A DNA stretch of 64,000 nucleotides from an uncultured Pontibacter sp. (GTDB lineage Bacteria > Bacteroidota > Bacteroidia > Cytophagales > Hymenobacteraceae). This document shows, piece by piece, positions 1 to 64,000 of the stretch (position 1 is the first letter of the stretch; every line of letters begins with the position of its first letter). Location: contig CBINIP010000014.1 of NCBI GenBank assembly GCA_966250805.1, positions 12,600 to 76,599 of the forward strand. Direction: 5' to 3'. The position numbers and the translations under genes were made by a program. The notes under the pieces are model-generated. The model was not told the DNA's origin. It was given only the letters and a program-made list of their open reading frames with translations, and ran no database searches.

Positions 1-399
1 CCATGCCTGTGTATTTACTATACGCAAGTTCAAACGATAATCCGGGTGAGCGCCGGCATACGCGTCGCGCACATACAGCTTGCGATCTTTCAGGAAATCT
101 ACCATTTTAGCATGAAGCTGATCAAATTTCTCAGGATCAAAGGCTATGTTGATGTCACCCCACCAAACGGTATTTTCCGTTTTGGTATCTTTAACTACAA
201 AACGGTCTTTTGGAGAGCGGCCGGTAAATTTTCCTGTATCGCACATCAAGGCACCGGTGTCTGTCAGTACGCCTTCACCATTTTTGATGGCTTCTTCTAC
301 CAACTCAGCTGGGCTCAGGTTCCAAAGCACTTCTTGGGCCTCTTTGATGCCTATGCTATCAAGACCTACTGCATTAGATTTATTACCAGATTGTTTCAT
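1..399 (-). CDS. pckA: Phosphoenolpyruvate carboxykinase (ATP), N-terminal part; the CDS runs off the left edge
   Basis: Absent from the ORF track because it is truncated. The reverse complement from the ATG (397-399) reads MKQSGNKSNAVGLDSIGIKEAQEVLWNLSPAELVEEAIKNGEGVLTDTGALMCDTGKFTGRSPKDRFVVKD..., the PEPCK-ATP N-terminus including FTGRSPKD. The + strand ORFs 46-420 and 146-403 are its shadows. Confidence 0.85.
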   Translation of the reverse strand, partial: MKQSGNKSNAVGLDSIGIKEAQEVLWNLSPAELVEEAIKNGEGVLTDTGALMCDTGKFTGRSPKDRFVVKDTKTENTVWWGDINIAFDPEKFDQLHAKMVDFLKDRKLYVRDAYAGAHPDYRLNLRIVNTQAW

Positions 400-622
400 T
401 TGAAGTTAACGTGTTTTTAAAATAGTAAATAGTTTGTTTCACAACTATGCTACAAAAATATAAAAAATTGCATGTTTTACTAAGATTATGACAAATTAAT
501 AAGCAGGGCCTTACTGTTGCCTCACCCATAACGTAAAATGTTTGTCAATGTGCACCTAATCTGATATATTTACCTTCTGTGTATGCTAAAACTAATCTAA
601 ACAATCAATCATTTAAACGTCT

Positions 623-2068
623 ATGTCTGTTAATCAACAATCCCTTACCGAGCAGGTAAACGATCAAAACGCTTCGGGCGAGGCTGTTGCGAAGGGAAAA
701 CAAAAACACCCTAAGGGGCTGTACTTGTTGTTTTTCACTGAGCTTTGGGAGCGTTTCAGCTACTACGGTATGCGAGGCCTTCTTACCCTTTATCTTGTTA
801 AAACAGCCCAGCAAGGTGGTTTAGGCTTCAGCGAAGCTAGTGCTACCCTTATCTACGGCTGGTTTACAGGCCTAGTATATCTTACGCCTATAGCAGGTGG
901 TTGGTTAGCCGATAAATACATTGGACATCGCCGCGCAATACTTATAGGTGGTGTTACTATGGCATTAGGTCAGTTCAGTTTGTTCTCTACGCCTTACCTG
1001 GGCGTGGAAATGACTTACCTTGGCCTCTTACTGCTTATCCTTGGTAATGGTTTCTTTAAACCGAATATTTCTTCTATTGTAGGTAACCTTTATGCTCAGG
1101 GCGACCCACGCCGCGACTCAGCGTTTACAATCTTCTACATGGGTATCAATATTGGTGCTTTCCTGGCGCCACTTGTTTGTGGTTACCTTGCCGAAGACTA
1201 TTTCGCCACAAAAGAGGTAGTAAATGGTGTTGAAACTGTTACACGCTATGGTTTTCAGTATGGCTTCTTAGCTGCCGGTATCGGTATGGTTATCGGCCAG
1301 ATCGTTTTCAATACATTAGGCCAGAAATATCTTGGCAACTTAGGTTTGAAACCTGTTAAAGGCGAAACTGACGCAGCTACAGGCGAAGAGAAAAAATCAA
1401 CTAAACTTTCTAAAGAAGAGATTGATCGTGTTTCTGTGATCTTCATTATTTCTTTGTTTGTGATCTTCTTCTGGGCTGGTTTCGAGCAGGCTGGTAGTTC
1501 CCTTACACTTTATACAGATAAGTATATAGACAGAGAGGTATTCGGCTTATTAATTCCTACTTCATGGTTTCAGTCTGTTAACCCAGCATTTATTATTCTG
1601 TTATCCATACCAACTGCACAATTATGGTTATACCTAGCTAAAAGAGGAAAAGACCTGAGCATACCAACTAAAATGGGTCTGGGTATGATTTTGTTAGGAA
1701 TCGGCTTTTTCTTTATGGTTGGTGCTGTAATGGAACGTGGTGGTGTAGAAGATGAAACTGTAAAAGCTAGCATTGCCTGGTTGCTTGCTACTTATTTCTT
1801 CCACACAATCGGTGAGCTTTGCCTTTCCCCAATCGGCTTGTCGATGGTAACACGCTTGGCTCCGGTTTCCTTGGTATCGATGCTGATGGGTGTATGGTTC
1901 CTGGCTCCGTTTGTTGCTCAGATTGCCGGTGGTTACATTGCTTCTTATGTAGAAGAACTTGGTGCACTAACTATATTCTCTACAATTGGTGCTTTCGTAA
2001 TTGTGGCTGGTTTAATATTGATCGCCCTTACCCGTAAACTGATGTATATGATGCACGGCCGCGGCTAA
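623..2068 (+). CDS. POT/PTR2 family di-/tripeptide:proton symporter
   Basis: 481 aa. It has the PTR2 signature ELWERFSYYGMRGLL near the N-terminus and many hydrophobic TM-like segments. Confidence 0.85.
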   Translation: MSVNQQSLTEQVNDQNASGEAVAKGKQKHPKGLYLLFFTELWERFSYYGMRGLLTLYLVKTAQQGGLGFSEASATLIYGWFTGLVYLTPIAGGWLADKYIGHRRAILIGGVTMALGQFSLFSTPYLGVEMTYLGLLLLILGNGFFKPNISSIVGNLYAQGDPRRDSAFTIFYMGINIGAFLAPLVCGYLAEDYFATKEVVNGVETVTRYGFQYGFLAAGIGMVIGQIVFNTLGQKYLGNLGLKPVKGETDAATGEEKKSTKLSKEEIDRVSVIFIISLFVIFFWAGFEQAGSSLTLYTDKYIDREVFGLLIPTSWFQSVNPAFIILLSIPTAQLWLYLAKRGKDLSIPTKMGLGMILLGIGFFFMVGAVMERGGVEDETVKASIAWLLATYFFHTIGELCLSPIGLSMVTRLAPVSLVSMLMGVWFLAPFVAQIAGGYIASYVEELGALTIFSTIGAFVIVAGLILIALTRKLMYMMHGRG

Positions 2069-2086
2069 GCATTATCAATAATTTGC

Positions 2087-2124
2087 AAAAAAGGCTCTGC
2101 TTAGTTTAAGCAGAGCCTTTTTTA
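2087..2124 (+). terminator. Rho-independent terminator after the POT transporter gene
   Basis: 10-bp stem GGCTCTGCTT / AAGCAGAGCC (2093-2102 / 2108-2117) with a 5-nt loop, followed by a T-run. Confidence 0.75.
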
Positions 2125-2857: not shown

Positions 2858-2914
2858 TTTATATTATGGTTTAGGCAACAATAGTACCGATTCAGTAAAA
2901 GATAAATAATTATA

Positions 2915-2956
2915 AAAGTAAAACGCCCGGGCTTTAAGTCCGGGCGTTTTACTTTT
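2915..2956. terminator. Bidirectional terminator hairpin between the convergent lipoprotein gene and groEL
   Basis: AAAAGTAAAACGCCCGG ... CCGGGCGTTTTACTTTT forms a long GC-cored stem flanked by A- and T-runs. Confidence 0.75.
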
Positions 2957-2980
2957 AAGAGTATAAACTATGGGGTCTGA

Positions 2981-4636
<1,656 letters not shown>

Positions 4637-4653
4637 TTAACTCTTAATTCAGA

Positions 4654-4944
4654 TTAAAGAATAGCCAGAATATCAGACTCACGCATGATCAGGTAGTCGC
4701 TACCATCTACTGAAATCTCAGTACCAGCGTATTTGCCATACAAAACTTGGTCGCCTACCTGTACCTGTGGTTTCAGAGTCGCACCCTGCTCAGATACTTT
4801 ACCTTCGCCAACGGCTACTACCTCGCCACGCTGTGGTTTTTCTTTAGCAGTGTCAGGAATAATGATACCCGATTTGGTTTTTTCTTCTGCTGCAGCAGGA
4901 GCTACAATTACTCGGTCTGCTAATGGTTTAATGCTGATTGACAT
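4654..4944 (-). CDS. groES: Co-chaperonin GroES (Cpn10)
   Basis: 96 aa reading [10 protein letters not shown]...[13 protein letters not shown]. It lies 41 nt upstream of groEL on the same strand. Confidence 0.97.
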
Positions 4945-10509: not shown

Positions 10510-11796
10510 TTAGCTAAGCACCTTTAACATTGCCTGTGCTTTCAGAAGACATTCTTCATATTCTTTATCCGGATCAGAATCGAAGGTGATGGCGCTGCCT
10601 ACCATGAAGGACAGGTAGCCGGTAGCTGCATTGTATTGTATACTTCTGATCACGACATTAAAATCGCAATCCTGATCAGGGGTAATGTAGCCAAAGGCAC
10701 CAGAGTATAAACCTCGTTTTGTAGTTTCAACTTCTTCAATTATTTCCATTGCCCTGATCTTAGGCGCTCCTGTCATACTTCCCATCGGGAAAGCCCTTGC
10801 CAATGCGTCTACCAGATCACTTTCTGGCCTTAGCTCGCCAACTATAGTTGATATCATCTGCGTAACCTGCCTGAAAGGGTAAATACCGAACATTTCCTCA
10901 ACCTTAACCGTGCCTGTAGCGCAAGACCGGCTCAGGTCATTCCGAACCAAGTCAACGATCATCATGTTTTCTGCCAGTTCCTTTTCGTCGTGACGGAGTT
11001 GGTGCTGTAGTTGTAAATCTTCTTCAGGCGTTAAGCCACGGCGTATAGTGCCTTTTATTGGCTGCGAGATCAACTTTCGTCCTTCTTTCTTTAGGAACCG
11101 TTCTGGCGAAGCGCATAGCAGAAACTTATCTTGGCATTTAAGAAAACCTGAAAAAGGAGTGGGGGAAGCCTGGTTAAGCGACAAGTATAAACTCAGAGGG
11201 TCAATTACGGCATGCTCTGCATAAAACTCCATGCAATAATTAAGCTCGTACACATCACCTTCCAGAATATAATTTTTAATCCGCTCCACCTGCTGTTTAT
11301 ACTGCTCTTTTGGCACTCTTTGCTGCACCTTTACGGGTTCTGGATTTAAGGCTACCGCTTCATCGAAAGAAAGTATAGTTGCAAGTATAGAATCGACATT
11401 ATCTATTGAACTTTTTATACTTACACTGTCGTGCTTAAAGTATAAGTATACTTCAGGCTCAAAGAAAAAAAGCAGAGGAAACCCTACTTGATCGTCATGC
11501 TCACTCCTGAGTTTCTCCAATTGATTTTTTAAGTCGTAGGTAAGGAAACCGCACAACAGATCCTGCTGCTCAGTTAATGCCTTGCGCAAGCTGCCAAAAG
11601 CATCCTGCTCATTAAGCGATAAAGGCGCACCGCTAGAAACAGCTAACAGATCAATAAAGCCATTGTAAGGATAAGGGATATCGTTGGAAGTATAATAAGC
11701 AACTGACAAGAATTGCTGCGCCCAATTGAGAGCCTTCAGCCTGCAGCTGTACAAGGAAATCGGTAGATCGGCAGCTTTTACTTCTTTGGTATACAT
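10510..11796 (-). CDS. pabB: Aminodeoxychorismate synthase component I (chorismate-binding enzyme)
   Basis: 428 aa. The FPMGSMTGAPKIRAMEIIEEVE motif resembles PabB (SITGAPK) more than TrpE or MenF. Confidence 0.75.
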   Translation of the reverse strand: MYTKEVKAADLPISLYSCRLKALNWAQQFLSVAYYTSNDIPYPYNGFIDLLAVSSGAPLSLNEQDAFGSLRKALTEQQDLLCGFLTYDLKNQLEKLRSEHDDQVGFPLLFFFEPEVYLYFKHDSVSIKSSIDNVDSILATILSFDEAVALNPEPVKVQQRVPKEQYKQQVERIKNYILEGDVYELNYCMEFYAEHAVIDPLSLYLSLNQASPTPFSGFLKCQDKFLLCASPERFLKKEGRKLISQPIKGTIRRGLTPEEDLQLQHQLRHDEKELAENMMIVDLVRNDLSRSCATGTVKVEEMFGIYPFRQVTQMISTIVGELRPESDLVDALARAFPMGSMTGAPKIRAMEIIEEVETTKRGLYSGAFGYITPDQDCDFNVVIRSIQYNAATGYLSFMVGSAITFDSDPDKEYEECLLKAQAMLKVLS

Positions 11797-15236: not shown

Positions 15237-16295
15237 ATGGTAAATTATCTGAAACTACTGCTCTGGCCTTTTGCTTTCCTTTACGGGAGAATAATGGCAG
15301 TACGTAATTATCTTTATAATACGGGCCTGCTGGTGTCGCACCGCTTTGTTTTGCCAGTGATTGCAGTAGGCAACCTGACAGTAGGAGGCACGGGTAAAAC
15401 CCCTCATGTAGAGTACCTGCTGCGCTTGCTTAAAGATTATAGTGTTGCTACACTTAGCCGGGGTTACAAGCGTAGTACAAAAGGATTTATACTTGCCAAT
15501 GAACATGCATCTGCTGCTACTATCGGGGATGAGCCTTACCAGTATCTCCGCGACTTTGCAGGGGTAACGGTAGCCGTATCAGAAGACAGGGTGAAAGGCG
15601 TGCAACAGCTTTTAGAAGCCAGACCTGACACAGAAGTTATAGTGCTTGATGATGCTATGCAGCATCGCCCAATAAATCCTTCCTTTAATATCCTGATCAC
15701 AGATTTTTACCGGCCATTTTACAAAGACCTGGTTATGCCAGCCGGTTTACTGCGCGAGCCAAAAACAGGAGCGAGTCGTGCCGATGCTGTTATTGTAAGT
15801 AAATGCCCGGAAAATCTTCCTAGTGCACAAAGAGCAAGTATAGCTGCAAGTATAAATAAGTATAGCAAAGCACCTGTATACTTCTCAGCTTATACTTATG
15901 GCGTACCAGTAAGTATAGGTTCAGAAAAAACATTGAGCAAAGAGGTGATTCTGCTTACAGGTATAGCTAATCCCAACCCTTTAAAGAAACAATTACAGGA
16001 GCAGGGTTATACTATACTGGAGCATGTTAATTTTCAGGATCATCACCAGTACACTGCACAGAACCTGCTTAAACTAAAAGAACAGGCCAGTAAGTATAAA
16101 AACCAAAATATCAGCATCATAACTACCCGGAAAGATGCGGTAAAACTGGAAGCAGAGGAGTTGCGGGCATTAACACAAAGCTTACCTGTATTTTACATTC
16201 CGATTGTTGTAAAACTGCTTGAAAGAGAGGAAGAGTTTAATAACATGGTGCTGCAACATGTACAGCATCAGCTTAAAAGCGAACTGAAATCGTAA
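15237..16295 (+). CDS. lpxK: Tetraacyldisaccharide 4'-kinase
   Basis: 352 aa with the P-loop VGNLTVGGTGKTP. Confidence 0.9.
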   Translation: MVNYLKLLLWPFAFLYGRIMAVRNYLYNTGLLVSHRFVLPVIAVGNLTVGGTGKTPHVEYLLRLLKDYSVATLSRGYKRSTKGFILANEHASAATIGDEPYQYLRDFAGVTVAVSEDRVKGVQQLLEARPDTEVIVLDDAMQHRPINPSFNILITDFYRPFYKDLVMPAGLLREPKTGASRADAVIVSKCPENLPSAQRASIAASINKYSKAPVYFSAYTYGVPVSIGSEKTLSKEVILLTGIANPNPLKKQLQEQGYTILEHVNFQDHHQYTAQNLLKLKEQASKYKNQNISIITTRKDAVKLEAEELRALTQSLPVFYIPIVVKLLEREEEFNNMVLQHVQHQLKSELKS

Positions 16296-18972: not shown

Positions 18973-19023
18973 AAGTATAACAGGAAAGGCCGGAGTTTCA
19001 ATCCGGCCTTTCCTGTTATACTT
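18973..19023. terminator. Bidirectional terminator with a perfect 22-bp stem whose tips are the AAGTATAA/TTATACTT word
   Basis: AAGTATAACAGGAAAGGCCGGA (18973-18994), loop GTTTCAA, then TCCGGCCTTTCCTGTTATACTT (19002-19023). It lies between convergent miaE and the 19068-20333 gene. Confidence 0.8.
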
Positions 19024-24062: not shown

Positions 24063-25901
24063 CTATTTCTTCAGGAAATCCTCGAAAGAATACTGCATGT
24101 ATGCTTTACCAAGCTCAACCTGCTCCTCTGTAACCTCAGGATCACGCGTGATGGGCTTTTTAGCTACATTATCATAGGTAAGTATACCTTGAGGCGTTAC
24201 AAACCCAAAGCCATCATTAAACACATAAAAAGCAAAAGGATAGTCAGTTGCAGCCATTAAGTTGCGGCCCCACTTAAAGTCCTGGTGAGGAAGGTTAAGC
24301 TGTGCCAGCAGGGTAGAGGCTATATCAGTCTGAGAGGCTATAGTTGTTACTTCTTTTCCTTTCTGGGTAACAACACCGCCAGTAAGTATAAATGGTATCT
24401 TAAATTTACTAGGAGCATGGTTGGCATCGTCGCCAGGCAGCGCGTGTCCGTGGTCGGCAACTATAACTACTAATGTATTTTGCCACCAGGGCTGCTTTTT
24501 AGCTTCTGTTATAAACCTGCCAAGTGCCCAGTCGGTGTAATAAACCGAGTTGCGGAATTTAGCTGTGTTGTCAGTACCCGGGAATTTAGCTGGGATCGGA
24601 ATTTCATATGGCTCGTGGCTGCTCAAAGTATAAACAGTTGAGAAGAACGGTGCCTTTTCCTGTTTCAGGTCTTTCAACACACGGTCAAACAAAACATGGT
24701 CGTGCGCACCCCACTTGGAATTATAGCTCTCTGCAGGAAAATCTGCTTTATCAATAAGTTTATTGTATCCGCCGTTAAGTAAGAAGGATTTGATGTTTGC
24801 AAACTCCAGCTCGCCGCCATAATAGTAACTTGTAGTATAGCCTTTCTGCTCGAAAACCTTGCTTAGCTGCGGCAGCTTCTCTGTTTTCTTAGGTGTTTTG
24901 ATGATAGAAGTAGTAGTCTGCACCGGATAACCACTCAGCAATGCCACCATACCTTTTTCGCTGCGGTCGCCGCTGGCATACATATTTGTAAAATTTACAC
25001 CCTCGGCTGCCAATTTATCCAAGTTTGGTGTTACACCCTGCTCGCCACCAAGGCTACCGACAAACTTTGCTGTATAACTCTCTAATATTATAAAGAGCAC
25101 GTTTGGTTTATCAGCAGAAATAAGCTTTTCGGTGGAGTCTGATGCAGCTGCATATAACGCTTCTACTTTAGCCTGCGCCTGCGGCATCTGCATGTAGTTA
25201 TAAGGGTTCTTGCTTACCTTGTTATACTTAAGCAGCGCGTGCATCAGGTTCCAGGGCATGTTCAGGCCAGCATGGTTTGCATAAGGATTATCAGAAAAAT
25301 AAGCCACGCTCTGATTTATAGGTATTTGCTGTATTCCTCCACGCAAGGGCAGTACCAGCAGAATCAGGTATACAAACGAAGCAGTAACCAATGGCCACTT
25401 GTTGTGCTGCAACTTATACTTCTCAGGATCAAAGTATAACTTAAACAGAAGTATAAATAACGAACTGATAGCCAGAACAACTATAAAAAGCAAAAACAAC
25501 GGAGCGTTGGCTGCAGAAGCGGCCATTTCGCCGGGTGTGTTCAGGTATTGCAGCGGTGAAGCATCTAACCGGAAACCCCAGAAAGTATAAAGCTCAAGGT
25601 CTGCGGCAAGAAGAGTGGTTATCAGCACTAATAAAGTATAAGTATAGTACCTGACAACTTTGGAGCCATTGAACTTAGGTAACAGCGCAGCGATCAGAAG
25701 CACCAGGAACGGCAGGAGCGAAGTATAGGCAATGAATGAAAAGTCGAGACGCGAACCAAAAAGGAAAGTATTGAATATATCAGCAATAGAAAGCTTTTCG
25801 GTACGGTCGAGGTGGTAGACAAGGAAAATTGCCCTGGCCACTATATAATAAAGTACCCAAAACAGAAAGTATAAGGGCTGGTAATATATTCTTCTTTTCA
25901 C
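24063..25901 (-). CDS. LTA-synthase-family sulfatase-domain membrane protein (phosphoglycerol/phosphoethanolamine-transferase-like)
   Basis: 612 aa. An N-terminal multi-TM region is followed by an extracytoplasmic sulfatase fold (ILESYT, VADHGH). Confidence 0.75.
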   Translation of the reverse strand: MKRRIYYQPLYFLFWVLYYIVARAIFLVYHLDRTEKLSIADIFNTFLFGSRLDFSFIAYTSLLPFLVLLIAALLPKFNGSKVVRYYTYTLLVLITTLLAADLELYTFWGFRLDASPLQYLNTPGEMAASAANAPLFLLFIVVLAISSLFILLFKLYFDPEKYKLQHNKWPLVTASFVYLILLVLPLRGGIQQIPINQSVAYFSDNPYANHAGLNMPWNLMHALLKYNKVSKNPYNYMQMPQAQAKVEALYAAASDSTEKLISADKPNVLFIILESYTAKFVGSLGGEQGVTPNLDKLAAEGVNFTNMYASGDRSEKGMVALLSGYPVQTTTSIIKTPKKTEKLPQLSKVFEQKGYTTSYYYGGELEFANIKSFLLNGGYNKLIDKADFPAESYNSKWGAHDHVLFDRVLKDLKQEKAPFFSTVYTLSSHEPYEIPIPAKFPGTDNTAKFRNSVYYTDWALGRFITEAKKQPWWQNTLVVIVADHGHALPGDDANHAPSKFKIPFILTGGVVTQKGKEVTTIASQTDIASTLLAQLNLPHQDFKWGRNLMAATDYPFAFYVFNDGFGFVTPQGILTYDNVAKKPITRDPEVTEEQVELGKAYMQYSFEDFLKK

Positions 25902-46941: not shown

Positions 46942-46988
46942 TTAGTGCAATCTCAAAGTATACTTCTTATTAAAGTATAAACATCAAA

Positions 46989-48289: not shown

Positions 48290-49108
48290 TTACAAAAACA
48301 AATCTTCCTTCAGCTTGTCTAAGATAGGATGTGAAGCGGCAAAAGATGATTTGTTAATAGAGGATATATACTTTATACCCGTAACATTAGAAGCGAAAAC
48401 GGCCTCAGCCTTAAAAAGCCTTTCCGGCTTAAAGTATACTTCCTTCAGTTTTATACTTTGTGCCTGACACCAGCGCACGATGTTGCGGCGAACTATGCCA
48501 TTTACACAACCCGTATCAAGTGCCGGAGTATAGATAATGTCATTATTTATCCAGAAAATGTTGGATGATATAAGTTCTGAAACTATACCCTGGCGGTTCA
48601 GCAGGAGCATATCATCAGCTTGCTGGTCTTTTTTTTCGATGCCTGCCAATACGTATAGCAGCGCATTTGGCCCTTTAAAATAGGAGAGTGGCGAGTAATT
48701 AGTAAAAGTACTGCTGCATATTCCGATGTGAAGAGGCTTAACGGCGGCAGGTGCCTGGGCATGCACTGTTGCAAGCCAGTCCGTACTATTTTCTTCCGGA
48801 GTATAAAGTCCGGCTCCAGAACGCCATACTTTCAGTTTTAGCCGACCATAGTTGATAGCTCCGTTTTGTTCCGCTAGTTTTAGTAGCTTATCAGCAAATT
48901 CCGACGAAGCAAATTCTGCAGGCAACTGCAACCTTAGAGTCTGAGCAGCCTCCTGCATTCGCGCTACATGATCGGGCCAGAAACGCAACTTGCACTGTTG
49001 CACCACTATAGTTTCAAAAAAACCATCGTTGTACTGAAAGGCACGGTTGTGGAGCGGCAAGCGAAGCTCTTGTTCAGATATAAGAATGCCATTGTAGAGT
49101 AGACTCAT
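48290..49108 (-). CDS. Class IV aminotransferase-fold protein, probably aminodeoxychorismate lyase
   Basis: 272 aa. Its size and N-terminal FQYNDGFFET are typical of PabC/IlvE-fold enzymes. The substrate is not determinable from the sequence. Confidence 0.55.
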   Translation of the reverse strand: MSLLYNGILISEQELRLPLHNRAFQYNDGFFETIVVQQCKLRFWPDHVARMQEAAQTLRLQLPAEFASSEFADKLLKLAEQNGAINYGRLKLKVWRSGAGLYTPEENSTDWLATVHAQAPAAVKPLHIGICSSTFTNYSPLSYFKGPNALLYVLAGIEKKDQQADDMLLLNRQGIVSELISSNIFWINNDIIYTPALDTGCVNGIVRRNIVRWCQAQSIKLKEVYFKPERLFKAEAVFASNVTGIKYISSINKSSFAASHPILDKLKEDLFL

Positions 49109-49237: not shown

Positions 49238-50350
49238 TTACCCAATCAGCATAAAGCGTTTACCGGGCAAGGCTTTTACCATTCCTTTAAATTCAAGTCC
49301 TAATAATACCGATGCCAGCATACTTACCGGAACCTGAGCTTTCCAACTCAGATTATCCATGTGTTCTTCCTGGGTTTGCTGCAACACCTGTAGTACTTTA
49401 AGCTCTTCTTCGGTATAGTCAGCAGGGTTAAAAGCAGAAGTTCTTTTAGCAGCTGCTTCGTCTTCCAGGTCCCAGTTCAGCAGTTCTACCAGGTCCTGAG
49501 GCGAAGTATAAACAGCTGCCTTGTGGGATTTGATCAGGTGATTAGTACCTTCAGAAACCGAAGAATTAATATTACCGGGCACAGCCATTACTTCTTTATC
49601 ATAACTGTGGGCTATATCTGCGGTTATCAGGGTACCGCTTTTAAATGCTGCTTCTACAACAATAGTGCAGTCAGACATGCCGGCAATGATACGGTTACGG
49701 GCCGGAAAACGTGGCGCGTCGGGCTTGGTGCCAAAAGTGTTTTCTGAAAGCAGACCACCGTTATCCATCATCTTTTCAGCATACTTACGGTGCACGGCAG
49801 GGTAAATAATATCAGGCCCACTGGCCATTACGCCTATAGTTGGCAAACCAGCCTGCAGAGCCGCACGATGTGAGATAATATCTACGCCGTAGGCAAGGCC
49901 GCTTACTATCATCACATTATAAGGTTTAAGTCCTTCTACAATGCGTTCGGTTACACTTTGCCCGTAAGTAGTGGGTTTGCGCGTACCAACTATACTGATG
50001 ATGCGTTTATGGTTCAGATTGGCATTGCCTCTGAAGTATAGAAGCACAGGGGCATCGGCTATCTGTTTCAGCCGGTTAGGGTAACGGTCCGAAGTATAAA
50101 AGAGTATCTGAACTTCCTGTTCTTCAGCCTTTTTGATAACTTCTTCAGCCTCAACCAAAGCCTGGCGAAAATTGCTGGTGATGTTGCGCACCATTTTATC
50201 TCCAAAGCCAGGAATCTTCAGTAATTTACCCGGAGGCGAAGAAAATACAGCTTTAGGTGAGCCGCAATAGCTTACCAACAGGCGCGTCAGTTGTGCGCCA
50301 ATACCAGGCAAATGGGTGAGAGCAACTTCGTAGAGGCTGTTTTCAGACAT
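49238..50350 (-). CDS. dprA: DNA-processing protein DprA (Smf)
   Basis: 370 aa. It has a Rossmann-like core (IVSGLAYGVD...) and a C-terminal winged-helix-like region. Confidence 0.85.
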   Translation of the reverse strand: MSENSLYEVALTHLPGIGAQLTRLLVSYCGSPKAVFSSPPGKLLKIPGFGDKMVRNITSNFRQALVEAEEVIKKAEEQEVQILFYTSDRYPNRLKQIADAPVLLYFRGNANLNHKRIISIVGTRKPTTYGQSVTERIVEGLKPYNVMIVSGLAYGVDIISHRAALQAGLPTIGVMASGPDIIYPAVHRKYAEKMMDNGGLLSENTFGTKPDAPRFPARNRIIAGMSDCTIVVEAAFKSGTLITADIAHSYDKEVMAVPGNINSSVSEGTNHLIKSHKAAVYTSPQDLVELLNWDLEDEAAAKRTSAFNPADYTEEELKVLQVLQQTQEEHMDNLSWKAQVPVSMLASVLLGLEFKGMVKALPGKRFMLIG

Positions 50351-50918: not shown

Positions 50919-53558
50919 ATGAACTCAGCTGAGATAAGAAAACAGTTCCTCGATTTTTTTGCTTCCAAGCAGCATCAGGTTGTGCCTTCTGCGCCACTGG
51001 TAGTAAAAGATGACCCTACGTTGATGTTTATCAACTCGGGCATGGCTCCATTTAAAGATTATTTTCTGGGCAACAAGCCTGCGCCATACAAGCGTATAGC
51101 CGATACCCAGAAATGCCTTCGCGTAAGCGGCAAGCACAACGACCTGGAAGAAGTAGGTTACGATACCTATCACCATACCATGTTCGAAATGCTCGGCAAC
51201 TGGTCGTTTGGCGATTACTTTAAGAAGGAGGCACTGGCCTGGTCATGGGAATTGCTGACAGAAGTATACAAACTGCCGAAAGACAGGCTGTACGTTTCTG
51301 TTTTCCAGGGTGATGAGTCAGAGAACCTGCCAATGGATGAGGATGCCTTTAACATCTGGAAGAGCATGATCGCTGAGGACCGTATCCTAATGGGTTCTAA
51401 AAAAGACAACTTCTGGGAAATGGGTGATACCGGACCATGCGGCCCTTGCTCTGAAATCCACGTTGACTTACGTTCTGATGAGGAGAGAGCTCAGGTTGAT
51501 GGCAAAACCCTTGTAAATGATGATCATCCACAGGTAGTGGAGATCTGGAACAACGTATTCATGGAGTTTAACCGCCTGGCTGATGGCTCGCTGGTAAAAC
51601 TGCCTGCGCAGCACGTAGATACAGGTATGGGCTTCGAGCGTTTGTGCATGGCTATACAGGGCAAGCGTTCTAACTATGATACTGACGTTTTCCAGCCGCT
51701 AATCCAGTACATTGCTAAAGAAGCAGGTGTAACGTATGGCGAGAACGAGAAAACTGATATCGCTATTCGTGTAATGGCTGACCACATTCGTGCCATTGCT
51801 TTTGCCATTGCCGACGGACAGTTGCCATCGAACAACAAGGCAGGTTACGTTATCCGTCGTATACTTCGCCGTGCGGTGCGTTATGCCTTCACTTTTTTGG
51901 ATTTCAAGAAACCTTTCCTGTATAAACTGGCAGCCGTACTGGCCGATCAGATGGAAATTGTTTTCCCTGAATTGAAGCAACAGCTGAGCTTTGTGCAGCG
52001 TGTGATTGAGGAAGAAGAAAATGCTTTCTTAAGAACGCTTGAAAATGGTCTGAAGAGACTGGATGCGCTGGAGGATAAATTCAAAGAGAACAACAACACC
52101 ATCGACGGCAAAACAGCCTTCGAACTATACGATACTTTCGGTTTCCCGCTGGACCTGACAGCTCTTATTGCCCGCGACAAAGGCCTTAAAGTTGATGAAG
52201 CAGGTTTTGGCGTGGAGATGGAGCAGCAGAAAAACCGTTCACGTAACGCTTCTGCCTCCGAGCAAACCGACTGGGTTATACTTCAGCCGGACGTGGTAAA
52301 CGAGTTTATCGGCTACGATGTGGATACTACTGAGTCACACATAGTACGCTACCGCCAGGTGAAGACTAAGAACAAGAGCGAGTATCACATTGTACTTGAT
52401 AAAACCCCTTTCTATGCTGAAAGTGGTGGCCAGGTAGGTGATACAGGTTACCTGATCTCTGATAATGAGCAGATCGAGGTACTGGATACAAAAAAAGAGA
52501 ACGACCTTATACTTCATATTACAGCGAAATTACCTCAGAACCCTGAAGCTGCTTTCAAAAGCCAGATTGATGTAGAGCGTCGTAACCTGATCCGTAAAAA
52601 CCACTCGGCTACGCACTTACTGCATGCGGCTTTACGTAAAGTTCTAGGTGAGCACGTGCAGCAGAAAGGCTCTCTGGTAAGCGAAAAAGTGCTTCGCTTC
52701 GACTTCTCACACTTTGCCAAGGTTGAGGATGCGCAGCTACGCGAAATTGAGCATATTGTGAATGAGCGCGTGCGCCAGGCAATTCCGCTGGAAGAACAAC
52801 GTAACGTGCCAATTTCTGAAGCAAAAGAAATGGGAGCCATGGCCTTGTTCGGTGAGAAGTATGGCGACTTTGTACGCGTGATAGCTTTTGACCGTGAGCA
52901 CTCGGTAGAGCTTTGTGGTGGTACGCACGTTTACAATACCGGCCAGATTGGCTACTTTAAAATAGTTTCTGAAAGCTCTGTAGCAGCCGGTGTTCGCCGT
53001 ATTGAGGCGCTTACAGCCGCAGCGGCAGAAGACTATATGCAACAGCAACTGAACGAACTGAACGCAGTACGCGAAGTGCTGGGTACGCAAAGCAACATTT
53101 CAGGTGCTGTAGAAAAACTGCAGGAAGAGAACAAAGCGCTGCAAAAACAACTGGAGCAATTTGAGCTGAAGCAGCTGACCAACCTGAAGGAAAGCCTTGT
53201 ACAGAAAGCTCAGGCCTTTGATGGCGTGAATTTTGTAGCTGAGCAGGTGAACGTTAGCAACTCAGATTACCTTAAAAAACTGGCTTTCGATATGCGACAG
53301 GCTGTAGATAACCTGGTGCTTATACTTGCGGCCGAGATAGAGGGTAAACCACAGATAGCTGTTATGCTTTCCGATAACCTTGTTTCTGATAAAAAGCTGA
53401 ACGCAAGCCAGATGGTGCGCGAACTGGCAAAAGAGATCAAAGGTGGCGGCGGTGGCCAGCCGTTCTACGCTACAGCAGGTGGTAAAGACGCATCTGGTTT
53501 ACAGGCCGTACCAGCCAAAGCAGCAGAATTAGTAAAATCACTGATTAATAACGGATAA
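50919..53558 (+). CDS. alaS: Alanine--tRNA ligase
   Basis: 879 aa. It starts MNSAEIRKQFLDFFASKQH, carries the editing-domain HSATHLLH and a C-terminal DHHA1-like region. Confidence 0.97.
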   Translation: MNSAEIRKQFLDFFASKQHQVVPSAPLVVKDDPTLMFINSGMAPFKDYFLGNKPAPYKRIADTQKCLRVSGKHNDLEEVGYDTYHHTMFEMLGNWSFGDYFKKEALAWSWELLTEVYKLPKDRLYVSVFQGDESENLPMDEDAFNIWKSMIAEDRILMGSKKDNFWEMGDTGPCGPCSEIHVDLRSDEERAQVDGKTLVNDDHPQVVEIWNNVFMEFNRLADGSLVKLPAQHVDTGMGFERLCMAIQGKRSNYDTDVFQPLIQYIAKEAGVTYGENEKTDIAIRVMADHIRAIAFAIADGQLPSNNKAGYVIRRILRRAVRYAFTFLDFKKPFLYKLAAVLADQMEIVFPELKQQLSFVQRVIEEEENAFLRTLENGLKRLDALEDKFKENNNTIDGKTAFELYDTFGFPLDLTALIARDKGLKVDEAGFGVEMEQQKNRSRNASASEQTDWVILQPDVVNEFIGYDVDTTESHIVRYRQVKTKNKSEYHIVLDKTPFYAESGGQVGDTGYLISDNEQIEVLDTKKENDLILHITAKLPQNPEAAFKSQIDVERRNLIRKNHSATHLLHAALRKVLGEHVQQKGSLVSEKVLRFDFSHFAKVEDAQLREIEHIVNERVRQAIPLEEQRNVPISEAKEMGAMALFGEKYGDFVRVIAFDREHSVELCGGTHVYNTGQIGYFKIVSESSVAAGVRRIEALTAAAAEDYMQQQLNELNAVREVLGTQSNISGAVEKLQEENKALQKQLEQFELKQLTNLKESLVQKAQAFDGVNFVAEQVNVSNSDYLKKLAFDMRQAVDNLVLILAAEIEGKPQIAVMLSDNLVSDKKLNASQMVRELAKEIKGGGGGQPFYATAGGKDASGLQAVPAKAAELVKSLINNG

Positions 53559-53626: not shown

Positions 53627-55084
53627 ATGGATAAAGAGATAAGAGACAAATATCAGGCAATTATAGGTCTGGAAGTGCACGCTCAGCTGCTCACAGAAAG
53701 CAAAGCTTATTCTTCTGACTCAACTGAGTATGGCGCAATGCCTAACACCAACCTGAGCGTGATCACTTTAGGTCATCCAGGCACGCTGCCGCGCGTAAAC
53801 AAAAAAGTGGTGGAGATGGCCGTGAAAATGGGTCTGGCTACAAACAGTGAGATCACACGCTACAACCTGTACGCACGCAAAAACTACTTCTACCCCGATC
53901 TTCCGAAAGGTTACCAGATAACGCAGGATAAAACGCCTATCTGTACGCACGGCCACCTGGTGATAAAAGATGCTGAAGGCAATGATAAGCGCGTTGGCAT
54001 CACGCGTATTCACATGGAGGAAGATGCCGGTAAATCGATGCACCTGGCTGGCGAGACAGAAACGCTGGTGGATTTTAACCGTGCCGGTGTTCCGCTTATC
54101 GAGATAGTTTCGGAGCCGGATATCCGTGATTCAGTAGAAGCCTATAATTACCTGACTGAGATCAAGCGCTTGGTAAAATACCTGGATATCTGCGATGGCA
54201 ATATGGAAGAAGGCTCGCTGCGTTGCGATGCCAACATTTCTGTGATGCTGAAGGATTCGCCGCTTTGGGGTACTAAAGTGGAAGTGAAAAACATGAACTC
54301 TTTCCGCAACGTGCAGCGCGCCATTGAGCACGAGATCGAGCGCCAGATCGAGATCCTGGAAAACGGAGGCAAGGTAGATTCCGAAACCCGTAACTTTGAT
54401 GCCAACACAGGTAGCACCACTGCCATGCGCTCAAAAGAAACGCTCAACGACTACCGATACTTCCCTGAACCGGACCTTCCGCCACTGGTAATTGAGCAGG
54501 AATGGCTTGAAAGTATACATGCCAACATGCCAAGCCTGCCACAGGAACTTTACAAGCGCTTTACGCAGGAGTATGGCCTGCCAGAATACGATGCCGCTGT
54601 ACTTACCGATGCGAAAGAGATTGCTTTATACTTTGCTGAGCTTTGCACGCATACTACTAACTATAAAGCGGCCTCTAACTGGGTAATGGGCCCTGTAAAA
54701 TCATACCTGAACGAACTGCAACTGCACATAAAAGACTTCCCGCTTCAGCCGGAAAGTATAGCAGGCATTATAGCGCTGGTTGATGACAACAAAGTAAGCC
54801 ATTCAGTAGCTTCTAAAAAGATCTTCCCTTACCTGATAGAGAACCCGGGCAAAACGGCACAGGAGGTGGCAGAAGAGCAGAACCTGTTGCAGGAGTCAAA
54901 CTCTGATGAGCTGTCGCAAATTGTAGCAGCTGTACTTGCCGAAAACCCTGCTAAAGTAGCAGAGTATAAGGCTGGTAAGCAGTCGCTGGTAGGCATGTTC
55001 ATGGGCGAGATCATGAAGAAAACTAAAGGTAAAGCCGACCCTAAAGTAGCAAACCAATTGCTGCGCGAAGGCTTGAACGCTTAA
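53627..55084 (+). CDS. gatB: Asp-tRNA(Asn)/Glu-tRNA(Gln) amidotransferase subunit B
   Basis: The start is set at MDKEIRDKYQAIIGLEVHAQL, the canonical GatB N-terminus. The ORF-track start at 53597 lies inside the hairpin. Confidence 0.93.
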   Translation: MDKEIRDKYQAIIGLEVHAQLLTESKAYSSDSTEYGAMPNTNLSVITLGHPGTLPRVNKKVVEMAVKMGLATNSEITRYNLYARKNYFYPDLPKGYQITQDKTPICTHGHLVIKDAEGNDKRVGITRIHMEEDAGKSMHLAGETETLVDFNRAGVPLIEIVSEPDIRDSVEAYNYLTEIKRLVKYLDICDGNMEEGSLRCDANISVMLKDSPLWGTKVEVKNMNSFRNVQRAIEHEIERQIEILENGGKVDSETRNFDANTGSTTAMRSKETLNDYRYFPEPDLPPLVIEQEWLESIHANMPSLPQELYKRFTQEYGLPEYDAAVLTDAKEIALYFAELCTHTTNYKAASNWVMGPVKSYLNELQLHIKDFPLQPESIAGIIALVDDNKVSHSVASKKIFPYLIENPGKTAQEVAEEQNLLQESNSDELSQIVAAVLAENPAKVAEYKAGKQSLVGMFMGEIMKKTKGKADPKVANQLLREGLNA

Positions 55085-56930: not shown

Positions 56931-56934
56931 ACTT

Positions 56935-57845: not shown

Positions 57846-57946
57846 AATTATAATTCATCCGTTAGTGTCTGTTTTTATACTTCATATTTGATCGAAAGTA
57901 TACACTACAGCAGAATTTATAGTTGGAAGAAGGCTATTTACGATCA

Positions 57947-58603: not shown

Positions 58604-58724
58604 CTCTTTTGTAATGTTTAATCCTGTAATAGCGGTACCTGTTTAAATTTACTTATAACGCAGCTACCAGTTTTAGATATTTGCGAAAATAACGAACCTA
58701 AGCCAATTTTTCAGTATAGTATCT

Positions 58725-58732
58725 TACATTTG
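58725..58732 (+). promoter_or_regulatory. -7 promoter box (TACATTTG) for ribE
   Basis: It matches TAnnTTTG, 56 nt upstream of the ATG at 58789. Confidence 0.4.
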
Positions 58733-58788
58733 CATAGATCCTGAACCAACTTTCAGGTATTATTTTACAGAAAATAACGCATAGCAGC

Positions 58789-59974: not shown

Positions 59975-60901
59975 CTACTTTACTATTAACCTATGGTAAC
60001 TCACACCATAACCACCCCAGATACCTAAACCGCCATTTATATTGGAACGGGTAGTATTAGGCGAGCCAATTGGGCTTCCGTTGCCGTTTTGTTCGCTTTC
60101 TATGGTAAACCAGAAGCGGTAATGTTCAAAATCAATGGAGCACCATTTTACAGTAATTGTATCGCCCTTCCCGAAGTAGCTATACTTGTCCATGTCTATA
60201 TCTTTCTGACCTCTTGGTTCGCCACGGTCCAGCGGATAATCAATGTAATCTGTGCCGTTAATGAATTCATCGGTAAAAACAGAAGCGAGCAGGCCCGGGT
60301 AAAATGGTTCGCTGTTGCGTTTGGTAAAGTAACGGGTATTGTTGCCTAAGGTATCAGGATCCCTGAAGCGGTAGTATAATGTAACAAGGCTATCTTCGTC
60401 GGCATCAGGGTGCGGTACTGTCCAGAGCGAATCGAGTGGCGAGAGGTTTGGGATGGTGGTGGCAGAAGTTAACACCTTTCCTTCGTGGCTGATGCGCAGT
60501 TTATACTTGCCGCCAAGCCTTCCTCTCAAGGCATCAGAAGTATAAATATAGAAATTCCGCTCTTTCAGTATACTTTTACTTAACCCCAACTGCTCCGAAA
60601 CCAAACGCTTTTGCTCTTCCGTGAAACTGGCAGATGCTATTTCCTGCAATACATAATCCTGACCCTCAGAAGTGACAACCACCTGCGCACCATGCACAAA
60701 GGCATCCTCAAAATCAGCATCTGAGAAACTACGGAAAACAGGTACTGAATGCGTTAGCACCACAATAGGCGGGGCATCCTGTTCAATATGTCCTTCAACC
60801 ACCAGTTGCGCATCGCCCTCTGGCAAATCCAGCGTCAGGTTTTCTTCGCAGCTTGTCAGCAACAGAACGAAAAACAGTAGCAAAAACAGCTTATTTCTCA
60901 T
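59975..60901 (-). CDS. DUF4249-family lipoprotein, the usual partner of the upstream TonB-dependent receptor
   Basis: 308 aa with lipobox LTSC. It starts 2 nt after the receptor stop. The pairing with a CarboxypepD_reg-type receptor is typical. Confidence 0.6.
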   Translation of the reverse strand: MRNKLFLLLFFVLLLTSCEENLTLDLPEGDAQLVVEGHIEQDAPPIVVLTHSVPVFRSFSDADFEDAFVHGAQVVVTSEGQDYVLQEIASASFTEEQKRLVSEQLGLSKSILKERNFYIYTSDALRGRLGGKYKLRISHEGKVLTSATTIPNLSPLDSLWTVPHPDADEDSLVTLYYRFRDPDTLGNNTRYFTKRNSEPFYPGLLASVFTDEFINGTDYIDYPLDRGEPRGQKDIDMDKYSYFGKGDTITVKWCSIDFEHYRFWFTIESEQNGNGSPIGSPNTTRSNINGGLGIWGGYGVSYHRLIVK

Positions 60902-63270: not shown

Positions 63271-63324
63271 AACCTTTGATAGCTGTTCAAGATCAGGTAA
63301 AGAACAACAGATTACTGTAAAGGT

Positions 63325-63900
63325 TTAACGAACAAAGGAGGGGTATTTGTTCAGCCAGATAGTATAAGCAAGCGAACTTAAATAGGCAGTGAAAGCACCT
63401 ACCAATGCCCCGCCAATTATATCGCCCGGAAAGTGTACGCCCAGGTATATGCGGCTATAGGAAACCACAACGGCCCAGGTAACCAGAACTATCTTAAAAA
63501 TAAAGTATCGGTCCGAGAGTATCAGGTTGAAGAAAACGGCCAGCGCAAAACTGGTAGACGCATGCGAAGACAAAAAACCGAACTTGCCGCCACAGCCCTG
63601 CACAATATTAATCATTTCAGAAAGCTCAGGGTCGTGGCAGGGGCGAAGGCGCTCGAAAGCGGGCTTGAAAATGCCGGAGGCAACAAAATCTGCCAGGCCA
63701 ATGGCAACTATAGCCATCAGCAGCATAGGTATACTCTGGCGCTTGTAGCGGTAAATAATGTAGATGATCAGCAGCAGGTAAAAAGGAATCCAGACATACT
63801 TGTTGGAAGTATAGATCATCATGGTATCCCAGAACGTACTGTGCTGATCGTTCAGGAAAAGAAAAAGCTCTTTATCCAGCTTCTCTACCGCCTCAATCAT
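63325..63900 (-). CDS. PAP2-family phosphatase (membrane)
   Basis: 191 aa carrying the acid-phosphatase motifs KPAFERLRP, SSHAS and SRIYLGVHFPGD. Confidence 0.85.
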   Translation of the reverse strand: MIEAVEKLDKELFLFLNDQHSTFWDTMMIYTSNKYVWIPFYLLLIIYIIYRYKRQSIPMLLMAIVAIGLADFVASGIFKPAFERLRPCHDPELSEMINIVQGCGGKFGFLSSHASTSFALAVFFNLILSDRYFIFKIVLVTWAVVVSYSRIYLGVHFPGDIIGGALVGAFTAYLSSLAYTIWLNKYPSFVR

Positions 63901-63902
63901 AA

Positions 63903-64000
63903 TTAAATAACGTTTATCCAGTCAATGTCCTTTTTCAGGTAGTTCAGCGTCTGCTCTTCGGCACTGCCAGGTTCAGGTTTATGATTGTATACCCACGAAG
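63903..64000 (-). CDS. C-terminal end of an unidentified CDS that runs off the right edge
   Basis: The open minus-strand frame reads ...SWVYNHKPEPGSAEEQTLNYLKKDIDWINVI with a stop at 63903-63905, 2 nt before the PAP2 start. The product is unknown. Confidence 0.4.
   Translation of the reverse strand, partial: SWVYNHKPEPGSAEEQTLNYLKKDIDWINVI

Follow-up and report, generated by a model that had tools for sequence, protein, structure and literature searches.

The first-pass annotation of this locus reported a dispersed octamer, AAGTATAA/TTATACTT, in far more copies than chance would give. The locus raises the question of whether this excess is real and, if so, which process produced and maintained it. 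The window (the whole 64,000-nucleotide stretch analysed) consisted of ordinary housekeeping DNA of Pontibacter (Hymenobacteraceae), in line with the Bacteroidota affiliation implied in the first-pass annotation, and Pfam analysis of its 54 ORFs agreed with the earlier observation that no transposase, integrase or CRISPR is present.

Abundance and consensus of the word

An exact count over the 64 kb window gave 107 octamers, 54 on the forward and 53 on the reverse strand, and 173 copies of the core AAGTATA (95 and 78, respectively). These results indicated that the over-representation was real; the earlier tallies, about 100 octamers and about 150 cores, fell a little short, and the octamer count was not under 20, the figure named as a check. 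AAGTATAAA was counted 65 times in the window, and the word with its sub-words provided the commonest 6-, 7-, 8-, 9- and 10-mers. The GC content of the window was 45.0%. In 100 dinucleotide-preserving shuffles of the window, the octamer occurred 3.29 ± 1.81 times (maximum 8) versus the 107 observed, and Markov models of orders 0, 1, 2 and 3 predicted 3.4, 3.3, 5.3 and 11.2 octamers, respectively. For AAGTATA, the same orders predicted 12–35 copies versus 173 counted. The excess over chance was 14- to 30-fold.

Under the maximal-order Markov model (M6), 103 octamers were expected (observed/expected 1.04). Taken literally, this high-order check proposed earlier would refute the excess, but it was uninformative because the conditioning 6- and 7-mers are abundant merely as parts of the word; the model is circular, since the word generates its own sub-words. 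Our preferred null was the within-gene shuffling of synonymous codons, which supported the excess: after shuffling, the genes contained the 7-mer 18.7 ± 4.1 times, versus 137 observed.

The sequence logo agreed with the previously proposed extended consensus RAAGTATAAA. It read R (66%), AAGTATA, A (62%) or G (21%), and A (47%), and the flanks beyond carried approximately zero information. Seven positions were near-invariant and positions -1, +8 and +9 were weaker, giving about 9–10 nt overall; the core can be written AAGTAT[A>G] and the extended form R-AAGTATA-A-A. A repeat search of the window revealed no larger repeat unit around the word and nothing longer than 48 nt, and the longest repeat families were seeded by the word itself. 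No Rfam match was found in the window. Because the flanks showed no conservation beyond R-AAGTATA-A-A, the element is a bare word and not a repeat element, in line with the earlier view that it is not mobile. The conserved unit longer than the word that would mark a REP or MITE family was absent from the flanks and repeats of the window. In the literature searched, no mention of AAGTATA(A) was found.

Distribution across the window

The word occurred at 2.7 copies/kb, and the 7-mer occupied 1.9% of the bases in the window. The mean spacing was one 7-mer per ~362–370 bp and one octamer per ~600 bp, and the word was present in every 2-kb interval and in 56 of the 64 1-kb intervals. As described earlier, copies lay on both strands, in spacers and in most genes (38 of 54). 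Genes held 137 copies (79%; 2.4/kb) and intergenic regions held 36 (5.4/kb), with an intergenic density of 6/kb downstream of genes versus 2.7/kb in divergent promoter spacers. The spacing was uneven and clustered (coefficient of variation 1.2), no regular spacing or periodicity was seen in the window, and the position of copies along genes was uniform.

Dense clusters of copies are listed in Table 1. The sulfatase-family gene at 24063-25901 contained 12 copies altogether (6.5/kb), and the palindromic composite found in some clusters occurred three times in the window. The more conserved a gene, the fewer copies it tended to contain (rho -0.41, p = 0.05), and the absence of the word from the highly constrained groEL, groES and thyA genes, already reported, was confirmed. 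Terminator hairpins held only 1–3 of the 173 copies. The inverted pairs within terminators mentioned in the first-pass annotation were overstated: one clean pair was found, with 22-nt arms that are 100% complementary and form a terminator-like hairpin stem between convergent genes, together with one or two looser cases.

The orientation of the word was independent of the strand of the gene, with sense:antisense ratios of 17:28 and 30:62 in forward- and reverse-strand genes, respectively (p = 0.57). Intergenic copies were divided 16:20 between the strands in the window and 138:132 over 16 A-dialect sequences (the window and 15 loci). The 95:78 imbalance in the window was fully accounted for by gene orientation, and strand skew was absent in all 28 loci tested.

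Table 1. Word copies, clusters and genes of the window referred to in the text.
Feature	Position	Strand	Remarks
groEL-groES	2981..4944	-	groEL 2981-4612, groES 4654-4944; zero copies
Cluster, 6 copies in 83 bp	11371..11453	.	within chorismate-binding enzyme gene
Overlapping palindromic composite AAGTATACTT	11444-11453		part of the 11371..11453 cluster
Cluster, 6 copies in 82 bp	15836..15917	.	within lpxK (gene overall 7.6 copies/kb)
Inverted pair AAGTATAACAGGAAAGGCCGGA / TCCGGCCTTTCCTGTTATACTT	18973..19023	.	sole clean case
Cluster, 6 copies	25415..25646	.	within sulfatase-family gene 24063-25901
thyA	46098-46892		zero copies
Three copies in 24 bp	46956..46979	.	thyA-MFS spacer; AAGTATACTT among them
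Copy in class IV aminotransferase gene	48452..48458	-	peptide Q-S-I
dprA	49238..50350	-	DNA_processg_A and DprA winged helix; 3 word copies
Copy in dprA	50092..50098	+	coding strand TAT ACT T, peptide Y-T-S
Copy in alaS	51262..51268	+	GAA GTA TA, peptide E-V-Y
Copy in alaS	52508..52514	-	xxT ATA CTT, peptide L-I-L
Copy in gatB	54627..54633	-	xTA TAC TTx, peptide L-Y-F

Imprint of the word on coding sequence

Genes used the word in all three frames and in both orientations, with a frame bias and a proteome adapted to the word. Among the peptides compatible with the word, the realised contexts amounted to 29 of 32 for Y-T-x, 20 of 27 for K-Y-x and 5 of 6 for frame-1, while 30–55% were realised in the remaining frames (full range 30–91%); codon usage predicts just 1–4 realised contexts per class. 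About half of the coding positions that are able to hold the word do hold it. The force on the word acts at the DNA level and not at the protein level.

Conservation and dialects among related species

We compared the window with 36 related loci. The results revealed that 72% of word copies were intact in P. vulgaris versus 28% of control 7-mers, and 46% were intact in P. ruber versus 21% for controls. Third-codon-position identity was 91% within words versus 62% elsewhere. The enrichment of the word in relatives, which the first-pass annotation had proposed to check, was borne out: 16 Pontibacter species share the AAGTATA(A) dialect (A clade), and a monophyletic sister clade of 12 carries the one-letter variant AGGTATA(G) as its top word (G clade). 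AAGTATA was the top 7-mer in 14 of the 30 loci retrieved with dprA; P. liquoris also showed enrichment, and P. actiniarum did so weakly. In the G dialect, position 2 is shifted from A to G and the flanks from A-A to G-C, giving AGGTATAG; the dialects differ at weak positions too. AAGTATG and AACTATA were secondary variants. Among the loci compared, neither word was enriched in two nested species, Botryobacter, two basal Pontibacter, Adhaeribacter and Hymenobacter; the species without the word include P. saemangeumensis, P. ummariensis, Botryobacter ruber, P. silvestris and strain SGAir0037. Sister species without the word have similar GC content and proteins. The dialects track phylogeny, and the word was lost in nested species.

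At orthologous sites with conserved peptides, the synonymous codons of each clade spelled its own word, and 15 alignment columns contained both words versus ~0.14 expected by chance. The peptides YTS, EVY and YTY can be spelled in either dialect, LIL yields the word in the A clade only, and AIP, TGI and KGI yield it in the G clade only. At the dprA site (50092), the word was found in 12 of 15 A-clade sequences and the synonymous TATACCT in 9 of 11 G-clade sequences. Similarly, the first alaS site (51262) read AAGTATA in 12 of 15 A-clade and AGGTATA (GAG GTA TA, synonymous) in 12 of 12 G-clade sequences. The second alaS site (52508) held the word in 12 of 15 A-clade sequences, and the G clade encoded L-I-L via GATTCTG or GATCCTG; the gatB site (54627) held it in 15 of 15 A-clade sequences, and the G clade had L-Y-Y without the word. 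Amino-acid changes tracked the dialect at some sites (QSI/QGI, RSI/RGI and KYT/RYT). In the aminotransferase gene (48452), 8 of 12 G-clade sequences had AGGTATA together with Q-G-I, so that the dialect altered the amino acid.

Comparison with uptake sequences and proposed mechanism

The first-pass annotation had likened the word to DNA uptake sequences, an analogy that gained much from the dialects, the synonymous saturation, the conservation, the lack of polarity and the loss in nested species, and was weakened by the poor association with terminators. The DUS of Neisseriaceae (receptor ComP) are, like the word, short asymmetric sequences dispersed in thousands of copies over ~1–2% of the genome, equal on both strands, located in genes and spacers with a frame bias, divided into one- or two-base dialects along the family phylogeny, and occasionally arranged as inverted-pair terminators. 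The DUS GCCGTCTGAA is, however, unrelated to AAGTATAA: it is GC-rich, comprises 10–12 positions and occurs at ~1/kb, whereas the Pontibacter word is AT-rich, with 7–8 strong positions and 2.7 copies/kb. Moreover, natural competence is not documented for Pontibacter, a Bacteroidota genus, and the genus is not known to carry a ComP-type pilin. The USS of Pasteurellaceae likewise fall into two family-internal types split by phylogeny (Hin-type AAGTGCGGT and Apl-type ACAAGCGGT), are numerous in genes with preferred frames and a shifted proteome, are rarer in the most conserved genes, and have been explained by molecular drive (biased uptake and recombination). Compared with the USS, the Pontibacter word has a shorter core and no detected AT-rich flanking segments.

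The word showed the dispersed excess, strand symmetry, within-genus dialects and imprint on coding DNA of an uptake sequence, and the frequent location in terminators as inverted pairs was not seen, with one clean pair in the window. It appears shorter than known DUES (7–8 strong positions, or about 9–10 nt with the weaker ones, versus 9–12) and is two to three times denser. A host of such sequences is expected to be naturally competent, with an import machine and a cognate receptor (ComP, or the predicted ComN). DUES have been reported to make up as much as ~2% of the DNA, compared with ~1.9% here, and about half of them have been reported in terminators. In Riemerella columbina, of the same phylum, own DNA is taken up in preference to foreign DNA. 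No paper on competence in Pontibacter was found in the literature searched. The dprA gene reported earlier was confirmed as the only transformation-related gene of the window; to our knowledge, dprA is nearly universal among bacteria, and its presence is therefore no evidence of competence.

On balance, we lean towards the interpretation that AAGTATA(A) marks self DNA throughout the genome, as a word of the DUS/USS (DUES) type spread by biased uptake and recombination, with uptake as the inferred driving step. The Pontibacter transformation machinery would include a putative DNA receptor, at the surface or in the periplasm, that prefers word-bearing double-stranded DNA; such fragments would enter the cell more frequently and, after processing by DprA/RecA, recombine with the chromosome. 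Over evolutionary time, biased uptake and homologous replacement would act as a molecular drive that fixes word-creating mutations where coding constraints allow and restores decayed copies. One lineage may have changed the specificity of its receptor and thereby retuned the whole genome to AGGTATAG, and copies would decay once the system is lost, which P. saemangeumensis, P. ummariensis and Botryobacter may illustrate. That core Pontibacter species take up DNA by a sequence-specific system, which exists in at least two dialects of co-evolving word and receptor (AAGTATAA and AGGTATAG) and was lost several times, seems to us evenly balanced between true and false. The pattern was previously known only from Neisseria and Haemophilus relatives, which suggests undescribed self-DNA recognition in a new phylum.

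Alternative explanations

Any other DNA-level process that favoured the word would give every sequence feature found here. A HIP1-like intracellular sequence-specific process, such as a mismatch or very-short-patch repair nuclease acting together with an orphan methyltransferase, or some other form of biased gene conversion, might make and keep the word in any replicating DNA without uptake. The cyanobacterial HIP1 GCGATCGC, whose function is still debated, is likewise a highly over-represented octamer at up to ~one copy per gene; it is described as an 8-mer in 15- to 300-fold excess, conserved beyond neutral expectation and present or absent by lineage. An altered enzyme specificity would yield dialects too, and the synonymous-site saturation and conservation would not by themselves single out the driving step. 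HIP1, however, is a palindrome with quasi-periodic spacing and is tied to orphan methyltransferases, whereas AAGTATA(A) is asymmetric and not its own reverse complement, in contrast also to typical orphan type II methyltransferase sites, and showed neither periodicity nor a methyltransferase link. Pfam analysis of the 54 ORFs found no orphan-type methyltransferase or Vsr-like gene in the window, 64 kb being a small sample. A repair bias acting on particular neighbours of the word should deplete them, but its 21 one-mismatch neighbours totalled 339 versus ~280 expected and no individual one was drained; no repair bias is known to enrich a 7-8-mer 14- to 30-fold. We consider this process unlikely. 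Less probable still is that a very abundant sequence-specific protein (nucleoid-associated or chromosome-organising) binds the word, with binding selected copy by copy and dialects arising by co-evolution. Such a role would suit the dispersal, strand symmetry and conservation of the word, its presence in every 2-kb interval and its twofold greater density in spacers, but population-genetic reasoning makes selection alone on ~ten thousand sites of negligible effect (a per-genome number extrapolated from 2.7 copies/kb) implausible, and the retuning of all copies after a specificity change still less plausible. In addition, related species live without the word, its spacing is irregular and its position along genes uniform, and the filling of about half of the compatible coding positions looks like drive and not site-by-site need.

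The remaining explanations fared worse. Polar signals such as Chi, read by the RecBCD/AddAB nuclease, or KOPS, read by the FtsK translocase, are also short, asymmetric, taxon-specific and over-represented in the core genome. They are strongly skewed to the leading strand, with a known enrichment of 2- to 5-fold, whereas the Pontibacter word was balanced on both strands, including its intergenic copies, and its excess and density far exceed theirs. The Chi-like alternative raised in the first-pass annotation was rejected because the word lacks polarity, and we regard a Chi- or KOPS-like signal as very improbable. Finally, the word could have no special role and be a by-product of codon usage, dipeptide or base composition, or of a degraded MITE/REP family, to which the maximal-order Markov ratio of ~1 (107 versus 103) would correspond; that model is circular here. 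The shuffle nulls (3.3 octamers and 18.7 coding copies), an intergenic density above the coding density, the lack of conserved flanks or longer repeats, and word-free sister species of similar GC content and proteins refuted the MITE and codon-usage explanations, leaving this possibility with a negligible chance.

Significance

For decades, all known uptake sequences have come from two proteobacterial families. If the uptake-sequence interpretation is true, the Pontibacter word would represent the first DUES-type system outside Proteobacteria and a third, independent case; a survey of October 2025 still treats uptake sequences as confined to those two families. Should the driver be a process other than uptake, the word would be a non-palindromic counterpart of HIP1, and a DNA-level force would still fix about half of the compatible synonymous sites and alter amino acids. 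The words also mark Pontibacter DNA sharply, which is of use in binning and in the recognition of foreign DNA within Pontibacter genomes.

An uptake function would predict natural competence in Pontibacter, a soil and desert genus currently without easy genetics, in which words added to constructs may raise transformation efficiency. We know of no route for DNA across the outer membrane in Bacteroidota, and the receptor would therefore be of a new kind. The several losses of such a system within the genus would provide natural knock-outs for finding the receptor: candidates are genes common to word-bearing species and missing or broken in the five word-free taxa named above, and position 2 of the word should be read by those receptor residues in which the A clade departs from the G clade. 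With its different word, higher density and clear dialects, such a system would show that evolution has turned to uptake bias as a general means of recognising self DNA.

Word counts, consensus and variants

The octamer AAGTATAA and its reverse complement TTATACTT were counted exactly in the 64,000-bp window, together with the core AAGTATA/TATACTT. The octamer occurred 107 times (54 on the plus strand and 53 on the minus strand), and the core occurred 173 times (95 and 78, respectively). In 100 dinucleotide-preserving shuffles of the window, which has a GC content of 45.0%, only 3.29 ± 1.81 octamers were obtained, with a maximum of 8; the excess that the first-pass annotation had tallied by eye was thus borne out. 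Markov models of orders 0–3 gave expectations of 3.4–11.2 octamers and 12.5–34.7 heptamers, and the most frequent 6-, 7-, 8-, 9- and 10-mers of the window were all the word and its own sub-words. Within coding sequence, 137 copies were observed, compared with 18.7 ± 4.1 after synonymous codons were shuffled within genes. The maximal-order Markov check suggested by the same annotation was also run and yielded an observed/expected ratio of 1.04. This near-unity value was not accepted as a refutation, because the conditioning 6- and 7-mers are abundant only as parts of the word and the ratio is therefore uninformative; the low-order Markov models, dinucleotide shuffles and synonymous-codon shuffles served as the nulls instead.

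A sequence logo of the 173 copies carried information solely at R(−1), the seven core bases, position +8 (A>G) and position +9 (A>C). The extended consensus was R-AAGTATA-A-A/C in the Pontibacter species that use this A dialect (A clade) and C-AGGTATA-G-C in those that use a G dialect (G clade). A repeat search of the window revealed no longer repeat unit, the longest repeat families being seeded by the word itself, and neither tRNAs nor Rfam families were found in the window. Since the flanks carry no information and no such unit or family was present, the element is a bare word, and a MITE or REP element was excluded. AAGTATG was enriched throughout the A-dialect clade (0.4–1.4/kb vs. 0.05–0.3/kb elsewhere; related loci L001–L012, L019, L023, L027 and L036), and the loci of P. 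anaerobius (L003) and of an uncultured Pontibacter (L007) had AAGTATGG almost as often as AAGTATAA. Position 7 can thus be written A>G, with a weight that varies by species. A second enriched word of the window was AACTATA/TATAGTT, with 47 copies after masking of the main word (approximately five times the order-2 expectation) and 17 copies of the octamer AACTATAG. It was clearly common to P. vulgaris alone (0.52/kb) and weakly to P. ruber, and may reflect tolerance of C for G at position 3 (G>C) or the beginnings of a further dialect in the window's lineage.

Placement in the window

Pfam annotation of the 54 ORFs indicated ordinary housekeeping DNA, including groEL/groES, secG, lptE, lpxK, glutamine synthetase III, ispG, leuS, an SF1 helicase, thyA, dprA, alaS, gatB, ribE and a TonB-dependent receptor. 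Transposase, integrase and CRISPR were absent from the window, and groEL, groES and thyA contained 0 copies each, both as read earlier from the sequence. The word was present in 38 of the 54 genes. Genes held 79% of the copies, at 2.4/kb, a lower density than the 5.4/kb of spacers. Copies were evenly placed along gene length (KS p = 0.71) and clustered along the window (coefficient of variation of spacing 1.2), and their density dropped as protein conservation rose (rho −0.41, p = 0.05). Spacers containing a gene 3′ end reached approximately 6/kb, and divergent promoter spacers were the poorest (2.7/kb). Inverted pairs within terminators had also been described: one clean pair was confirmed, and no further clean pair was found in the window. 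The strong terminator-like hairpin downstream of groEL is free of the word, and terminators here do not rely on it. Because the copies far exceeded those in the shuffles, were denser between genes than within them and lacked conserved flanks, an origin in composition, codon usage or repeat elements was ruled out.

Features of the window and the word copies associated with them (window positions)
Feature	Position	Size	Description
Terminator-like hairpin downstream of groEL	2906-2964		29-nt arms, 86% complementary, without the word
Inverted word pair	18973-19023		clean pair forming a terminator stem
dprA peptide Y-T-S	50092-50098		own word in each clade
alaS peptide E-V-Y	51262-51268		own word in each clade
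Long spacer	57466-57946	481 bp	5 copies; no ORF >=90 aa, no Rfam family, no tRNA
ribE peptide Y-T-Y	59269-59275		own word in each clade; TACACTT in the window itself
Long spacer	59386-59974	589 bp	3 copies; no ORF >=90 aa, no Rfam family, no tRNA

Coding level and strand symmetry

Within genes, all three frames and both orientations were occupied by the word. The word was encoded by 29 of 32 compatible Y-T-x peptides (TATACTT), 20 of 27 K-Y-x peptides (AAGTATA), 5 of 6 frame-1 sense peptides and 30–55% of the compatible peptides in the remaining frames; codon usage expects merely 1–4 word-encoding peptides per class. What favours the word operates at the level of DNA and not of protein. The sense:antisense ratio of coding copies was 47:90 in the window, mostly because compatible peptides number 106 in the sense and 168 in the antisense orientation, and the imbalance was gone in the other loci (263:283). 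The ratio was 17:28 in plus-strand genes and 30:62 in minus-strand genes (Fisher p = 0.57). Intergenic copies were distributed 16:20 between the strands in the window, and the intergenic totals were 138:132 across 16 A-dialect sequences and 36:50 across 12 G-dialect sequences, with every locus balanced.

Several other candidates were set aside. An RNA-level motif was excluded by the abundance of both orientations in genes and spacers. Read directly, TTATACTTTG does not match TAnnTTTG, the −7 promoter element of Bacteroidota, and such an interpretation was also opposed by the genic location of 79% of the copies and by the poverty of divergent promoter spacers. For the sigma-70 −10-like TATACT, a promoter scan gave 35 hits vs. 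34.4 in shuffles, with no excess.

Dialects and losses among relatives

Using the window DprA as the query, we retrieved 30 loci from the genome collection and counted the word by unbiased k-mers in approximately 21 kb per locus. Pontibacter accounted for 28 of the 30 loci (71–89% identity, with P. vulgaris the best), and the rest were Botryobacter ruber and a distant MAG. AAGTATA was the top 7-mer in 14 species (1.3–3.0/kb), and AGGTATA was the top 7-mer in 12 species (1.1–2.5/kb), with AGGTATAG as the top 8-mer in 11 of these 12; P. saemangeumensis, P. ummariensis, Botryobacter and the distant MAG had neither word. The first-pass annotation had asked whether relatives enrich the same word, and the A-dialect species did so, while the G-dialect species enriched their own. 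The A dialect was also found in P. liquoris (40 copies) and weakly in P. actiniarum (17 copies), which, together with the 14 species and the window's species, gave 17 A-dialect sequences. The word was absent from Pontibacter sp. SGAir0037, P. silvestris, Adhaeribacter radiodurans and Hymenobacter weizhouensis. In the A. radiodurans locus (CP055153, 2956677–2977792; GC 40.6%), 14 copies of TAGTAAAA and 13 of TTAGTAAA were counted over 21 kb, with a base-composition expectation of approximately 1.8, and these may constitute a weaker, different iterated word of a neighbouring genus.

When DprA was placed in a tree by neighbour joining, species of the G dialect grouped into one clade and those of the A dialect into another, which enclosed the two word-free Pontibacter. 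P. saemangeumensis, P. ummariensis and Botryobacter ruber, which showed no enriched word, were placed within or beside word-bearing clades, and dprA was intact in all three. Word-free species carried one- or two-base decayed forms (AAGTACA, AGGTGTA) at columns where relatives have the word. Judged from these sequences, the three species look like natural losses of the word.

Across 12 syntenic genes (window 46098–60901) aligned by codon, the A word occupied 67 columns and the G word 52; 15 columns had both, compared with approximately 0.14 by chance. Where a conserved peptide could be spelled both ways, each clade used its own word. Only the A word can be spelled in L-I-L and L-Y-F, and only the A clade had word-forming codons there; for A-I-P, T-G-I and K-G-I, the same held for the G word and the G clade. 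Residue changes also tracked the dialect (Q-S-I/Q-G-I, R-S-I/R-G-I and K-Y-T/R-Y-T). The window's coding copies were intact more often than control 7-mers in P. vulgaris (72% vs. 28%) and in P. ruber (46% vs. 21%), and third-position identity was 91% within words and 62% outside. The shared columns were dropped as proof of a single origin, because saturation lets dual-compatible conserved peptides fill independently; one origin with a later shift of dialect and three losses would nevertheless be the more parsimonious history.

Mechanism and rival explanations

From the observed sequence-level signature, we infer that uptake may be the driver of the word, and on balance we lean towards a system of the type of the DNA uptake enhancing sequences (DUES), which cover DUS in Neisseriaceae and USS in Pasteurellaceae. 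A receptor of the transformation machinery would favour DNA bearing the word, and biased uptake together with DprA/RecA-mediated replacement would drive the word through the genome. This mechanism was chosen because DUS and USS share the whole feature set with the Pontibacter word: all three are dispersed, strand-symmetric, asymmetric words that make up approximately 2% of the genome, constrain the choice of synonymous codons and even the protein sequence, are conserved between species, decay where the system is lost, and differ by a one- or two-base switch between sister clades. A 2025 survey lists DUES for these two families only, one with 11 dialects and the other with 2; they reach up to approximately 2% of the chromosome, show a frame bias and lie in terminators in about half of the cases. 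In Riemerella columbina, of another Bacteroidota genus, self-preferential uptake has been shown with no motif defined. Several differences count against the DUES reading: the Pontibacter core of 7–8 nt is shorter than known DUES, the word is 2–3 times denser, its copies are clustered and, unlike DUES, few of them lie in terminators. In addition, dprA is a near-universal gene, and its being the sole competence-type gene in evidence was counted against uptake.

A HIP1-like intracellular bias, linked to a methyltransferase or to repair as in the iterated octamer of cyanobacteria, predicts the same sequence signature; however, the word is asymmetric and its one-mismatch neighbours are undepleted (339 observed vs. 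approximately 280 expected), which argues against a repair bias turning one particular neighbour into the word, and we regard this explanation as unlikely. A nucleoid-protein site maintained by selection appears more doubtful still, being hard to reconcile with so many sites, with a dialect that switched wholesale and with relatives that live without the word. Chi- and KOPS-type signals were rejected, since the strands are balanced and polarity is absent. We also scanned IMG/VR for three close word copies, asking whether Pontibacter viruses carry the word, and the matches were solely AT-rich contigs (GC 23–36%), many of them giant-virus MAGs, compositionally unrelated to Pontibacter. Three of the viral contigs (L148, L073 and L154; GC 28–36%) carried AAGTATA at 2.7–4.5/kb, several-fold above the base-composition expectation, where it may be a viral promoter-like motif.

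A literature search, with most subscription-journal papers outside its scope, found no relevant published context for AAGTATAA, TTATACTT or the 7-mers and no paper linking Pontibacter to competence or iterated words. As a DUES-like system, the word is new in phylum, in sequence and in its higher density, and its receptor is presumably of a new kind. If uptake is not the driver, the word would be a new counterpart of HIP1 that is not palindromic. The genus itself, with its two dialects and its several losses, provides natural contrasts that make the question directly testable.
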